Below are positions 12,965 to 28,348 of a DNA stretch of 64,000 nt, in pieces. The stretch lies in the IMG/VR virus record IMGVR_UViG_2860209820_000001; one strand, 5' to 3'. A model generated the notes under the pieces. That model was not told the DNA's origin and did not search any database. It was given only the letters and a program-made list of their open reading frames with translations. Both the position numbers and the translations under genes were made by a program. This DNA comes from a virus. The first letter of the stretch is position 1. Each line of letters starts with the position of its first letter.

Positions 12965-13779
12965 TGGCTATTTCACTTTCCAAGCTCAAGTCGACCAAGA
13001 GCCGAAAGCCGCCAATCATCGTCCTGTATGGCGTTGACGGCGTTGGCAAGACATCCCTGGCAGCGGAATTTCCCGACCCGATCTATCTCCAGACGGCAGG
13101 AGAGAGTCCGCCTTCCGACGTCGAGCTGGCGACACCTGGCACGATCGAGACCTACGGTGACATGCTGGATGCGATCGGCGAACTGCTAACCCAGCCGCAT
13201 GACTTCAAGACGGTCATCATCGATAGTCTCGATGGGTTCGAGCCGCTGCTGCAGCGGGCCACCGCACAGCGCATCGGCGCCGACTCCATCGACTCCAACG
13301 AGAAAGGGTCGCCGGCCTCCTATGGCCGTGGCTACTCGGAGGCGGACAACGAGTGGAATGACTACCTGTCCGGCCTGGCCGAACTCGCGGCGCAAGGTAT
13401 CGGTGTGGTGCAGCTTGCTCACCCCGATATCGTGCGTTTCGACTCCCCGACATCCGACCCGTACAGCCGCTACAGCCTGAAGCTCCACAAACGGGCCAAC
13501 GCTCTGGTGCGCGAGCGGGCGGACATCGTCGGATTCATCAACTACCGGGTCACGTTGAAGACGGCGGACGCCGGTTTCAACAAGAAGGTGACCCACGGTG
13601 AATCTGGCGGCGACCGACAGATTCACCTGGAAGAGCGGGCCGGCTTTGTGGCCAAGAACCGCTACAACATGCCCCCAAGTGTCCCCTACAAGAAAGGTCA
13701 AGGCTACTCCGAACTCTCGAAATACTTCCCGGCGCCGGCAGGTGTCGCAAACGATAACGACATCGCAGAAGCTGCGTAA
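12964..13779 (+). CDS. AAA_24 / Sak4-like ATP-binding recombination protein
   Basis: Walker A LYGVDGVGKTS, Walker B TVIIDSLD, AKNRY. Confidence 0.85.
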   Translation: MAISLSKLKSTKSRKPPIIVLYGVDGVGKTSLAAEFPDPIYLQTAGESPPSDVELATPGTIETYGDMLDAIGELLTQPHDFKTVIIDSLDGFEPLLQRATAQRIGADSIDSNEKGSPASYGRGYSEADNEWNDYLSGLAELAAQGIGVVQLAHPDIVRFDSPTSDPYSRYSLKLHKRANALVRERADIVGFINYRVTLKTADAGFNKKVTHGESGGDRQIHLEERAGFVAKNRYNMPPSVPYKKGQGYSELSKYFPAPAGVANDNDIAEAA

Positions 13780-13792
13780 GGAGATATATTGA

Positions 13793-14311
13793 ATGGCTGC
13801 TTTAGGTGGAAGCTACAACCCGGATGCGGATCCTTCAACGGGCTCGTACGATCCCATTCCGGCCGGTGATTACAACCTCGAGATCGTCGAGTCAGACTAT
13901 GCCGCCAATGCCAAGGGCAACGGCATGGTGCTCAAGCTGACCGCGCAGATCCTCGACGGCGAATACGCCGAGCGCAAGCTCTTCATCAACCTCAACCTCG
14001 AGCACGAGAACGAGAAGGCGCAGGATATCGCTCAGCGTGACTTCGCCGCCTTGCGACGAGCGGTAGGAGTGCTCAACCCTCAGCACAGCGAAGAGCTGCA
14101 CTTCAAGGCGTTCATGGCAAAGGTCGGCGTGGAGAAGCGGAAGGACAACGGCGAACTCACGAACCGAGTGAAGCAGTACTACTTCGACGGTGAAGGCGGC
14201 GCACCCGCCAACGACAACCGATCCGCTGCCAACGAGAACCGGCCAGCGCCGCAGCAACAGGCGGCAACAGGCACGGCCGGCAAGCGGCCGTGGCCGACGG
14301 GACGGCGGTAG
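13793..14311 (+). CDS. DUF669 family single-stranded DNA-binding protein
   Basis: YDPIPAGDYNLEIVES, LKLTAQILDGEYAERKLF; follows AAA_24 as is typical. Confidence 0.8.
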   Translation: MAALGGSYNPDADPSTGSYDPIPAGDYNLEIVESDYAANAKGNGMVLKLTAQILDGEYAERKLFINLNLEHENEKAQDIAQRDFAALRRAVGVLNPQHSEELHFKAFMAKVGVEKRKDNGELTNRVKQYYFDGEGGAPANDNRSAANENRPAPQQQAATGTAGKRPWPTGRR

Positions 14312-14324
14312 TACCTAACCCCCA

Positions 14325-14344
14325 GGGCGGCGTTCGCGCCGCCC
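14325..14344 (+). terminator. GC-rich UUCG hairpin
   Basis: gggcggcg-ttcg-cgccgccc; no U-tract, so may be a stabilising or processing hairpin. Confidence 0.4.
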
Positions 14345-14366
14345 ACCTCTCCCAAGGACACAAACC

Positions 14367-15443
14367 ATGCGCGTAGAGATTGCGCGCGCCGACTTGGCGC
14401 GCCTGCTGACGGCTGTCGACCGCGTGGTCGAGGCCAGAAGCACCATCCCCATCTTGCAGAACGTGCTTCTGACGGCCGAGGCCGGCCGTCTGAAGGTGCA
14501 GGCGACCAACCTGGACATGGAGGCGCAGGCAAGCGCGGAGGCCGAAGTGGGCGAGCCTGGCGCCGTCACGGTGCCTGGCCGAACATTGAAGGACATCGCG
14601 GCGCGCCTGCCCAAAGATGCGCTGGTCACGATCAGTGTCGAAGGCGACACTGCGACCGTGAAGGCCGGGCGGTCGCGGTTCAAATTGCAAACGCTGCCGG
14701 CCGACGACTATCCGAACCTCGCGGCGGGCGCGTTTGACGTGACGTTCGCGCTGCCCGCCCACGACGTCAAAACCCTCTTCGGCCGAGCGGCCTACGCCAT
14801 GAGCACGGAGGAGACGCGCTATTACCTCAACGGCGTGTACATGCATGTGGTTGGGGACGATCTGGTGGTGGTCGCTACCGACGGCCACCAGCTGGCACGC
14901 GTTGCGGTGCCTAGTCCCGTAGCCGAAGTGCCGGCCGTCATCATCCCGCGCCAGATGGTGGGTGAGATCCAACGGCTAGACGCGGATCTGACCGTGTCGC
15001 TTTCCCAGTCCAAGATCCGGGTGGAGACCGGCGCGGTCGTCGTCACGTCCAAGCTGGTCGACGGCTCGTTCCCCGACTACGAGCGGGTCATCCCCCGGCA
15101 GAATGACAAGGTCGCCGTCATTGCGTCGGAGGCGCTCGCGGGAGCCGTGGCCCGTGTCTCAGCCATCCAGGACCGCAGCAGTCGGGCCGTCCGCTTTGAA
15201 CTCGCCGGTGATGGTGCTGCCCTGTCCGCAACCGGGCCAGAGGGCAAGAGCGCCAGCGACGAGATCGCCATCGAGTACAGCGCGGAGCCCATCACCATCG
15301 GGTTCAACGGCGAGTACGTCACGGGCACCCTCGCGGCGATCGGGACTCCGACCGTCTCGCTGAAGCTGGGCGACCCTGGAACGCCGGCCCTTATGTGCGG
15401 GGACGATACAAGCCTGCACGTCATCATGCCGCTGAGGGTTTGA
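14367..15443 (+). CDS. dnaN: DNA polymerase III beta sliding clamp
   Basis: TIPILQNVLL, ATNLDME, AMSTEETRYYLNGVYM, VATDGHQLA, SKLVDGSFPDYERVIP, IGFNGEY, VIMPLRV. Confidence 0.95.
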   Translation: MRVEIARADLARLLTAVDRVVEARSTIPILQNVLLTAEAGRLKVQATNLDMEAQASAEAEVGEPGAVTVPGRTLKDIAARLPKDALVTISVEGDTATVKAGRSRFKLQTLPADDYPNLAAGAFDVTFALPAHDVKTLFGRAAYAMSTEETRYYLNGVYMHVVGDDLVVVATDGHQLARVAVPSPVAEVPAVIIPRQMVGEIQRLDADLTVSLSQSKIRVETGAVVVTSKLVDGSFPDYERVIPRQNDKVAVIASEALAGAVARVSAIQDRSSRAVRFELAGDGAALSATGPEGKSASDEIAIEYSAEPITIGFNGEYVTGTLAAIGTPTVSLKLGDPGTPALMCGDDTSLHVIMPLRV

Positions 15444-26663: not shown

Positions 26664-26885
26664 ACATGCAGCAAACGTGTTGGCCAAACGTGTAAAAGGG
26701 GGATTCTTGCATGTTCGAACGTGTAAAGATGTAGAAATCCGGAAAGGTGCTGCACGTTAAAAATTCCCCTTTTATCTTTATATATCATCTACTTATAACT
26801 TTAACATGTAAATATAGGGGGTATACCCTTATACTCTAAAAAGGAGGTCTGAATCTGGGAAGAGTGTATATATTACACGTAAGGC
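26664..26885. other. candidate replication origin
   Basis: AT-rich non-coding stretch right after the primase gene; AACGTGT at 26674, 26687, 26718, AACATGT at 26803, inverted copy at 26874. Confidence 0.55.
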
Positions 26886-26951
26886 AAAACCGGCCCTGAG
26901 AGCCGGGAGACAACAACACGCTCTACGGCCCGCCATCACCCAAGGACAACG

Positions 26952-27335
26952 ATGGCAACCAGACGAATTCCCGAATGGCGCTTGCAGCACGCTGCGATCA
27001 AAGCGCTCTTCCAGGCCCGCAAGGATGGCATGCCCCTCCGATACGCGGCCAGCATGAACGCCGGGCTTCGCAGCCCAAGAGACCGGGCAATCGCCAAAGC
27101 CACGGGCATGGCGGCCGGTGAACCGGATCTGAACATCTACCTGCCTCACGGCAACCTGCTCCAGATCGAATACAAGACCGAGGACGGCGAGCTGTCCTCA
27201 GAGCAAATCGACGCCCACGCCGAAATTCTCGAGCTGGGCTTCCCTCCCGTGGCCGTCGTCATCGCCAAGGACGAAGACGACGCAGCCAGCCAGACCATGG
27301 CGCTCGTGCGCCAGCGCATTCAGGACAGCCAATGA
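26952..27335 (+). CDS. VRR-NUC domain nuclease / resolvase
   Basis: EWRLQ, GMAAGEPDLNIY, IEYKT...LSSEQ. Confidence 0.8.
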   Translation: MATRRIPEWRLQHAAIKALFQARKDGMPLRYAASMNAGLRSPRDRAIAKATGMAAGEPDLNIYLPHGNLLQIEYKTEDGELSSEQIDAHAEILELGFPPVAVVIAKDEDDAASQTMALVRQRIQDSQ

Positions 27336-28015
27336 CCATAGCAGCCAATGACAACGCCCCTTCGGCCCGAAAGCTCGCGATGGACGCGGAGCGGAAGAGA
27401 GACGACCGAGCGGCTGAAAAATTGAAGCGCTCGATCAGGGCTCGACAGGCGATCGGGGAGGGATGGGACGGCAGGGCCGACAACGACAACATCGCATGGC
27501 CCCTGGCCAAGGCGCTACTGGCCGAAAAGAACGGCGACCTGCTCAAATACGCCATCCGATATCGGCAGATCGAAGCCAGCGCGACGAGCGGCGCGCTGCT
27601 GGGAGGGACATCGCAGGGCATGGAGTTCATGCCGCTCGATCAGCGAACCTGGCTCAATGCGAAGGGCGAGGTTGTTAACAAGGGGGCCCGGAAGCTAACC
27701 GCCGTGGAGGTGACCGGCGACATCGGCACGCAGAACGGCGCGAAGGTCGCAAAGAAGTGGAACGGCGACGCCAAGGTCAATGCGATGATCGACGACAAGG
27801 CCTTGCTGGCACAGTTGCGCAGCCGGCTGGGCCTCATCCTTGAGCCCTTCGAGGATCTTGTGCTGCACGGCGCTACGCTGGAGAGGGTTGGGCGCGCACT
27901 CGGTTCGGGAAACATCAATGCAGCAACTGGAGCGGCTAAGGCTGTCGCCCACATGGGCCTCATCGCTATCCGCGACGCACTTGGCGAAATCAGGCGAGAA
28001 GACATAGCAGCGTAG
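27332..28015 (+). CDS. putative late-gene regulator (Q/antiterminator-like position)
   Basis: Follows the resolvase; C-terminal TLERVGRALG...AAKA...LIAIRD HTH-like segment. Confidence 0.5.
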   Translation: MTIAANDNAPSARKLAMDAERKRDDRAAEKLKRSIRARQAIGEGWDGRADNDNIAWPLAKALLAEKNGDLLKYAIRYRQIEASATSGALLGGTSQGMEFMPLDQRTWLNAKGEVVNKGARKLTAVEVTGDIGTQNGAKVAKKWNGDAKVNAMIDDKALLAQLRSRLGLILEPFEDLVLHGATLERVGRALGSGNINAATGAAKAVAHMGLIAIRDALGEIRREDIAA

Positions 28016-28096
28016 CTGCTCATGACCAGATCACCCTCCCGTGCGGGTTAATGGGAAGCCAATCAACTTCCACCGAATTTCAGGAGCGCGTCCTCG

Positions 28097-28348
28097 ATGA
28101 CGAAGCGTCCAAGCCTCGACCACTATGACAATCGCGACTACGACAACGCCACGCTTTTGACGGGCGACGCATGGGCCAACGATGCCCTGTACATCTCCAT
28201 GACCGAGGGCAGAACGCATGCCCGCGACAAAGCGCTGCTGAAGCAGTTCGGCGTGGATGGAAGCGTCCCGCTCCATCAGGCGATGATCAACGCTGGCCTG
28301 GCAGCCAATGACAACAACCCACCTGTCGCCATGGCCGTTGCCGCATAG
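28097..28348 (+). CDS. hypothetical protein with ssrA-like C-terminus
   Basis: 83 aa, RBS GGAG, ends AANDNNPPVAMAVAA. Confidence 0.55.
   Translation: MTKRPSLDHYDNRDYDNATLLTGDAWANDALYISMTEGRTHARDKALLKQFGVDGSVPLHQAMINAGLAANDNNPPVAMAVAA

Follow-up and report, generated by a model that had tools for sequence, protein, structure and literature searches.

In Alphaproteobacteria, the tag that transfer-messenger RNA (tmRNA, encoded by ssrA) adds co-translationally to broken translation products has an (A)ANDN head and an ..AA-COOH end and is located at a flexible C-terminus (in Caulobacter, AANDNFAEEFAVAA; SspB-alpha structures 2QAS/2QAZ). When the Caulobacter tag is instead encoded in DNA and genetically fused to a protein, proteolysis is very fast and enhanced by sspB (PMC9393093); the general roles of SspB and ClpX have been reviewed (PMC3985003, PMC8138137). 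Natural ClpX substrates with ssrA-like C-termini ("C-motif 1") exist, ClpXP has long been known to degrade phage proteins of replication and transposition such as lambda O and Mu transposase (PMC8138137), and anti-sigma factors of M. tuberculosis carry ssrA-like degrons (bioRxiv 10.1101/491043). Degrons resembling ssrA and the imitation of short host motifs by viruses are both already known. Here, we describe five proteins with C-terminal tails that mimic this tag in a prophage of the virus record IMGVR_UViG_2860209820_000001 (hereafter the window, the whole stretch of 64,000 nucleotides analyzed). The window corresponds to C1:107947-171946 of a 6.9-Mb genome, and the prophage is related to Rhizobium phage 16-3.

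The phage tails have the same head, end, and flexible C-terminal location as the native tag, with 10–14 residues versus 12 in that of the host. The native tag is added to broken products, whereas the phage tails are part of the open reading frames (ORFs) of intact proteins. Further differences are that the middle of the host tag (YAPVAQ) is not copied, that two tails end in -CA, and that the head also occurs alone at N-termini or in linkers. The C-motif 1 substrates and the degrons of M. tuberculosis are likewise genome-encoded terminal signals handing native proteins to ClpXP. Such known ssrA-like signals reproduce no more than the end bound by ClpX; the phage tails also reproduce the head bound by the adaptor, on many unrelated proteins of one phage. 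In the literature searched, we found no report of phage-encoded ssrA-tag mimics and, among the papers listed, none treating phage 16-3 together with ClpX, SspB, ssrA, or tmRNA.

The host itself supplies a matching tag together with SspB and ClpX. Its two-piece tmRNA gene (C1:258520-258892) encodes the 12-residue tag ANDNYAPVAQAA, in which ANDN forms residues 1–4 and is followed by eight residues, with a linker of six before AA. The sspB gene lies directly downstream on the same strand (both genes together, C1:257895-258892). The encoded SspB matches PF04386 (E 6e-48) and is homologous to the Agrobacterium protein 2NYS and to Caulobacter SspB-alpha 2QAS/2QAZ (E 1e-28). A ClpX with a zinc-finger N domain is encoded by an ORF of 439 amino acids.

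The tails copy this host's own tag, with the head (A)ANDN, 4–8 variable residues, and AA-COOH (Table 1). Five tag-like C-termini, with stops ending at 13779, 17693, 20849, 21555, and 28348, had been listed in a first-pass annotation and are reproduced by translation, as are the additional ANDN at 14207 (DUF669 tail) and 27344 (N-terminus). In all, the window contains nine ANDN, every one on the + strand and in frame with genes, and none on the - strand. In the five tails, the residue preceding ANDN is Ala in three and the linker between ANDN and the terminal dipeptide varies from 4 to 8 residues. Of all the tails, that of an 83-residue orphan ORF reproduces (A)ANDNYAPVAQAA of the host most completely; this protein has no relatives besides itself among 5.8 billion proteins, and its codon composition gives a GC content of 0.76 at third positions versus 0.43 at second positions. 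The tails extend past the ends of the Pfam domains. In an AlphaFold2 model of the Sak4 homolog, the core is confident and residues 262–271 have a predicted local distance difference test score below 50, so that the Sak4 tail is predicted to be disordered. In the DUF669 protein, ANDN is found in a low-complexity C-terminal region, 30 residues ahead of the stop, and the C-terminus is not AA; the relative position is the same in the DUF669 proteins of phage 16-3 (p078) and of phage RHph_TM3_3_14B.

The final dipeptide is AA in three of the five tails and CA in the other two. In the latter, there is a 10-nucleotide overlap (17684-17693 and 20840-20849) in which A-TGC-GCN-stop is read as ATG-CGC, the Met-Arg start of the next gene. 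The two -CA endings arise because the ATG of the overlapping gene makes the Cys codon, and they can thus be regarded as degraded copies of -AA. The same overlap with -CA is present in phage 16-3, between p096 and p097 (the methyltransferase p096 ends in ..AANDNQQAEVRACA) and between the HNH gene p056 and xis.

Counts in the host genome place the tails far beyond chance expectation. In six frames, ANDN occurs 39 times in 13.9 million codons, and, with both prophages and the tmRNA gene excluded, the rate is about 1.7 per million codons. For the genes at 12.9–30.9 kb of the window (about 6,000 codons), some 0.01 ANDN would be expected and nine are seen. ANDN is followed by a stop within 14 codons in 11 places genome-wide: the five window tails, the end of endonuclease VII, two ORFs of a second prophage, the tmRNA tag, and two tiny nongenic ORFs. 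The pattern ANDN-x(4-10)-[AC]A-stop, searched in six frames, is restricted to the window prophage (five), the second prophage (two), and the tmRNA gene; as predicted in the first-pass annotation, motif and stop are found together only in prophages and tmRNA, and in all 6,228 crude host gene calls the last 20 residues are free of ANDN. At the DNA level, the pattern GCN-AAY-GAY-AAY-N(12-30)-GCN-GCN-stop gives the same picture as the peptide search, and the reversed pattern, used as a control, has no match. The dipeptide -AA is the commonest C-terminal one in this high-GC host (4.3% of the calls). It ends 6 of the 17 early ORFs of at least 90 codons in the prophage (p = 5e-5 versus the host calls) and 1 of the 19 ORFs of the late operon.

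The second prophage (C1:291000-316100) shares with the window a block with Prim-Pol, VRR-NUC, p107-like, and 83-residue ORFs that are 96%–100% identical; the copy of the 83-residue ORF (C1:300545-300793) is identical. Its two tagged ORFs lie at C1:300-306 kb. Its portal differs from that of the window and is tagged, ending in ..PPANDNSGSEAEAA. Since this prophage is tagged and lacks Sak4, DnaN, and methyltransferase genes of the window's kind, the motif is not tied to one phage-encoded partner. An AlpA/Xis-like ORF of the second prophage (C1:291021, - strand) starts with ..AAANDNSPKRL.

The closest named relative of the window prophage is Rhizobium (Sinorhizobium) phage 16-3 (NC_011103), with a Sak4 62% identical to that of the window. 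Both have, in the same order, Sak4, DUF669, DnaN, HNH, Cas4 exonuclease, helicase, two methyltransferases, Prim-Pol, VRR-NUC, and p107; with this gene order and the homologous early proteins (Pfam, PHROG), the window prophage fits among the 16-3-like temperate phages. Phage 16-3 contains 16 ANDN in 40 kb. They form tails of the Cas4 exonuclease p085, the methyltransferases p096 and p097, the HNH protein p056, and the exonuclease p044; two are found in the helicase p088 ahead of a ..DDEVPF end like that of SSB; and Xis and p057 have ANDN at the N-terminus. A final AA is present in 12 of its 39 rightward early proteins. In contrast with 16-3, the Cas4 exonuclease and the helicase of the window end in plain -AA (ANDN was lost or never present), the window has the additional orphan of 83 residues with the fullest tag copy, and the host belongs to a different family. 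About 1 kb to the left of the window, an ORF at C1:106931 (- strand) has the N-terminus MATANDNIGPDEPLRL, like the Xis of phage 16-3 (MRVAANDNIKQDSPLRL).

The ORF at 27332 is the homolog of p107 of phage 16-3, which is annotated as sigma-factor-like. Its ANDN forms residues 5–8 (27344-27355) and its C-terminus is ..DIAA. The protein has no match in Pfam or PHROG, and the label "Q-like" given to it in the first-pass annotation finds no support.

Other phages differ in the motif. The temperate Rhizobium phage RHph_TM3_3_14B has 17 ANDN in 41 kb. In the virulent Brucella phage Tb, no ANDN occurs in ORFs of at least 60 codons, and the host has an ANDN-type tag; the phage encodes Sak4, SSB, helicase, HNH, methyltransferase, and primase, and one of its 22 early proteins ends in AA. 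In Roseobacter phage CRP-901, there is no ANDN in the 27 kb read. Because homologous enzymes of phages Tb and CRP-901 are free of ANDN, the tails are dispensable for the enzymes. In this small sample, the tails appear to belong to a lineage of temperate phages.

At the level of the order, 401 genomes were scanned with the DNA pattern. Nearly every genome has one match, its own tmRNA gene; the present genome has the most, with eight, and the reversed control is near zero. The extra matches in other genomes are clustered on one strand within 6–36 kb, in phage genes; the carriers are three portals, N6/N4 and C5 methyltransferases, a VRR-NUC nuclease, and helix-turn-helix proteins. In some genomes (G409:C4:461580 and 465579, G458, G291, and others), the tag-coding end of tmRNA is present in two identical copies, separated by a few kilobases or placed on different contigs, a pattern that integration of an island into ssrA would produce.

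A second sample consists of 50 related loci (48 around Sak4 homologs, phage 16-3, and the window), with Rhizobium, Agrobacterium, Brucella/Ochrobactrum, Devosia, Shinella, Bradyrhizobium, and Roseobacter among the sources. They contain 283 ANDN in 2.08 million six-frame codons (compare the 39 in 13.9 million of the whole host genome), of which 121 are at most 16 residues from a stop. In these 121 tails, the distance after ANDN peaks at 7–9 residues, against 8 in the native tag, and the C-termini are mainly AA (76), PF (14), VA (8), or CA (4). In the 76 ending in AA, the linker has a mode of 7 and is mostly of 5–7 residues, against 6 in the native tag. The residue preceding ANDN is Ala in 45%, which matches genuinely tagged proteins, or Pro in 27%. 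ANDN is spelled in 29 of the 32 possible synonymous ways, which indicates that selection acts on the peptide, and the motif is kept irrespective of which gene follows. In a locus from a deltaproteobacterial metagenome-assembled genome and near a distant Sak4 homolog, a frame of 47 codons (L078:13614-13757, - strand) ends in ..ANDNVELALAA; it is probably the tmRNA tag of that organism, which would place the prophage beside ssrA.

An ANDN-x(4-9)-AA tail is present in 36 of the 120 closest Sak4 homologs, with hypervariable, unrelated linkers; in most other homologs, nothing follows the core except a final ..GVAA or ..GIAA. On a FastTree tree of the Sak4 cores, the tail state changes 27 times, as compared with 30–34 times in 5 of 200 shuffles. 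A tail bound to one clade of the family is rejected on these changes. Because the tree is shallow and phages recombine, we read the Sak4 tail only as labile or as swapped through recombination, and not as repeatedly invented. The tagged portals, three in number, share 48%–69% identity and keep [P/A]ANDN-x(6-8)-AA with a fully diverged linker. Among 98 more distant full-length portals, none has ANDN in the tail and only two end in AA.

We propose that the tails are genome-encoded mimics of the host tmRNA tag that act as two-part degrons, with a probability of about 0.6. From the sequences, we infer binding to SspB, degradation by ClpXP, and a benefit to the phage. The [A/P]-A-N-D-N head, in which ANDN alone would suffice for binding, would dock on the host adaptor SspB-alpha, itself tethered to the N domain of ClpX, and the free ..AA-COOH, 5–8 residues beyond the head, would be engaged by the ClpX pore. 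ClpXP would then unfold and degrade the attached protein (the recombination ATPase, the HNH nuclease, the two methyltransferases, or the small orphan). As a disordered add-on, such a tail could appear, disappear, or be swapped while the enzyme itself stays as it is. Nucleases and methylases from leaky prophage expression could thereby be cleared, and early functions would be short-lived after transcription moves on. In addition, with one saturable protease common to many phage proteins, levels would be set by the expression rate and by the host load of tagged proteins. The residues of the tag that SspB-alpha reads are reportedly those described by Lessner and colleagues and by Chien and colleagues in 2007.

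The first-pass annotation had already suggested SspB/ClpXP degrons that make early proteins short-lived. Head, end, and spacing match the host tag and the host has SspB-alpha and ClpX, all in favor of the degron, but the restriction to early proteins does not hold: further ANDN are located in linkers, in tails with an SSB-like ..IPF end, and near the N-terminus of the 27332 ORF and of Xis and p057 of 16-3, and three portals carry the full tail. Several of the observations weigh against the degron as well. The portals, from three other prophages, are structural proteins and fit poorly with a logic of short-lived early proteins. Two of the five window tails do not have the ClpX-type -AA. ANDN found away from any -AA end, at N-termini, in linkers, and in the 14 tails ending in ..PF, implies a role of the head on its own, possibly other than degradation. 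Finally, the co-occurrence of the extra matches with ANDN-type host tags, in itself in favor of the degron, holds at the class level, where the host tag is confounded with the phage lineage. Every alphaproteobacterial tag begins with ANDN. In about 250 Pseudomonadota of other classes (beta and gamma), ANDN..AA-stop stays at the control level (about 32 vs. 22 matches); one genome of this sample, G686, is unpublished, and no conclusion depends on it. In the same genomes, ANDE..AA-stop (with the head of their tag) retrieves only tmRNA genes, duplicated tmRNA ends, and noise. There is thus no equivalent mimicry in hosts with an ANDE tag, and tracking of the host tag is a matter of presence or absence between classes only.

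Other explanations have to be considered. The ANDN proteins could be decoys that titrate SspB, and perhaps ClpX, after induction, so that the host can no longer process its tmRNA-tagged proteins or further proteins of the phage escape degradation; the decoys themselves need not be degraded. The many copies per phage (seven proteins in the window, 16–17 ANDN per 40 kb in 16-3 and RHph_TM3_3_14B) and the frequency of ANDN that lack an -AA end, in linkers or near N-termini, would suit a decoy. On the other hand, -AA at the native spacing, in 76 of the 121 C-terminal cases, is superfluous for a pure SspB decoy. No dedicated small protein with ANDN repeats is seen either, and a single inhibitor made for the purpose would cost less than a motif distributed among enzymes whose abundances differ widely. 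Decoys are a less economical explanation than degrons, and we consider them unlikely. ANDN might also dock on another partner, either a replisome or recombination hub or a phage protein, the likeness to the tag being due to convergence or coincidence. Most carriers are indeed DNA-handling enzymes, the prophage has its own beta clamp (14367-15443), and the same tails hold other candidate docking motifs (clamp-binding-like QxxLF in methyltransferases, SSB-tip-like ..D[DE][IV]PF in helicases). The motif is also lineage-bound, absent from the related enzymes of the virulent Brucella phage and of the Roseobacter phage. But portals, Xis, a sigma-like regulator, and small orphans are among the carriers as well, and the second prophage is tagged without a Sak4 or DnaN homolog of the window's kind. 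Moreover, an invariant head, often with an extra Ala (as alanyl-tmRNA adds), together with -AA at the native spacing would require a threefold coincidence; another partner seems about as improbable as a decoy.

That the tails merely result from overlapping genes, composition, or a signal in the DNA, and have no function as peptides, is contradicted by the data and extremely improbable. The start of the next gene overlaps or adjoins three of the five tails, the -CA ends are forced by the overlap, and -AA is common in the host; yet the 29 synonymous spellings, the reversed controls near zero, the lack of any host gene with the motif near its end, and the persistence of the motif whatever gene follows all argue for the peptide. 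Chance, composition, and a DNA motif were accordingly rejected on genome counts, related-locus statistics, and synonymous spellings. Two further origins were rejected. The tails are not remnants of a captured piece of a tmRNA gene, since each tail uses codons of its own and none reproduces the central part of the tag. Nor are they true trans-translation tags, as they are in frame within ordinary ORFs with their own stops.

Other short motifs accompany ANDN in the tails. In the N6/N4 methyltransferase, QAPLF (21505-21519), of the clamp-binding-like type QxxLF, directly precedes ANDN, and the orthologous methyltransferases of related loci, all of one gene family, end in ..ANDN..Q[AL][DS]LFG[ED]AA (..QADLFGEAA, ..QLSLFGEAA). 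This suggests that the methyltransferases may be tethered to the sliding clamp. Helicases of about 595 residues and other proteins have an SSB-tip-like ..D[DE][IV]PF end, often with one or two ANDN 10–20 residues upstream; a PF end is present in 51 of 1,622 crude gene calls of the related loci. With such motifs, the C-terminal tails in these phages resemble series of short sequences for docking on host proteins.

If the tails are degrons, no earlier natural example would exist of a virus that imitates a bacterial quality-control tag in both its halves and does so on many proteins together, and the tails would give a simple, transferable rule for unstable phage proteins in alphaproteobacterial hosts. 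They would also help to explain why the nucleases and methylases of temperate phages do no harm in lysogens, and would provide a natural example of coupled degradation via a common protease. The motif could help in recognizing prophage genes in Alphaproteobacteria. In synthetic circuits with proteolytic queueing (PMC12013620, PMC1943427), many proteins with the same tag compete for limited ClpXP–SspB, their levels are coupled, and threshold behavior appears. Those circuits were engineered in E. coli, whereas here queueing would be a natural phage design. More speculatively, and rather doubtfully, the 16-3-like temperate phages may wire at least a quarter of their nonstructural proteins (with Xis, a late regulator, and some portals) into the disposal of tmRNA-tagged proteins. 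Leakiness, early timing, and lytic commitment would then be gated by free SspB–ClpXP capacity, which reports the host load of stalled-ribosome products, as in a stress-sensing "proteolytic queue."

TABLE 1. Tagged proteins, their tails, and further features (window positions, or positions in related loci where an L number is given)
Feature	Position	Strand	Remarks
Sak4-like AAA_24 ATPase, 271 residues	12964..13779	+	Pfam AAA_24 E 7e-33; ATG at 12964
Tail of Sak4-like ATPase	13744-13779	+	VANDNDIAEAA-stop
DUF669 protein	13793..14311	+	Pfam DUF669; ANDN at 14207-14218
HNH endonuclease	17280..17693	+	Pfam HNH_3; PHROG endonuclease E 2e-27
Tail of HNH endonuclease	17655-17693	+	AANDNGGRAACA-stop; Cys codon from ATG (17684) of next gene
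DNA methyltransferase, 285 residues	19992..20849	+	phrog_799 DNA methyltransferase E 4e-65
Tail of 285-residue methyltransferase	20805-20849	+	AAANDNKSSERLCA-stop; Cys codon from ATG (20840) of next gene
N6/N4 DNA methyltransferase, main ORF	20884..21555	+	Pfam N6_N4_Mtase; protein ends ..FANDNTTIPRAA
Tail of N6/N4 methyltransferase	21505-21555	+	QAPLF-ANDN-TTIPR-AA-stop; stop overlaps next ATG (ATGA)
p107 homolog	27332..28015	+	38% identity to 16-3 p107, E 5e-42
Orphan ORF, 83 residues	28097..28348	+	Tail AANDNNPPVAMAVAA-stop at 28301-28348
ANDN of endonuclease VII	30728, 30785	+	Inside conserved domain, not tails
Early-operon proteins ending in plain -AA, no ANDN (within 15447..26663)	15447-15743; 16391-17359; 17684-18043	+	16391-17359 is the Cas4-domain exonuclease
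Further plain -AA ends, no ANDN	18040-19638; 24354-26663	+	SNF2/DEAD helicase; Prim-Pol
Methyltransferases with QxxLF-like motif by ANDN	L032:18774-19604; L037:15274-16092; L040:18926-19744; L043:18214-19029
Further methyltransferases with QxxLF-like motif	L047:18553-19368; L068:17975-18781; L079:31991-32662		L079 entry is 16-3 p097
SSB-tip-like ends	L032:14491-16284; L049:14715-16499; L070:14746-16536; L074:15305-17074; L060:17562-18371; L079:26986-28716		L079 entry is 16-3 p088

The two ANDN of endonuclease VII were set aside because of their place within the conserved domain. Two tRNA genes, for tRNA-Tyr(GTA) at 29020-29103 and tRNA-Thr(TGT) at 29258-29333, separate the early operon of the prophage from the late one.

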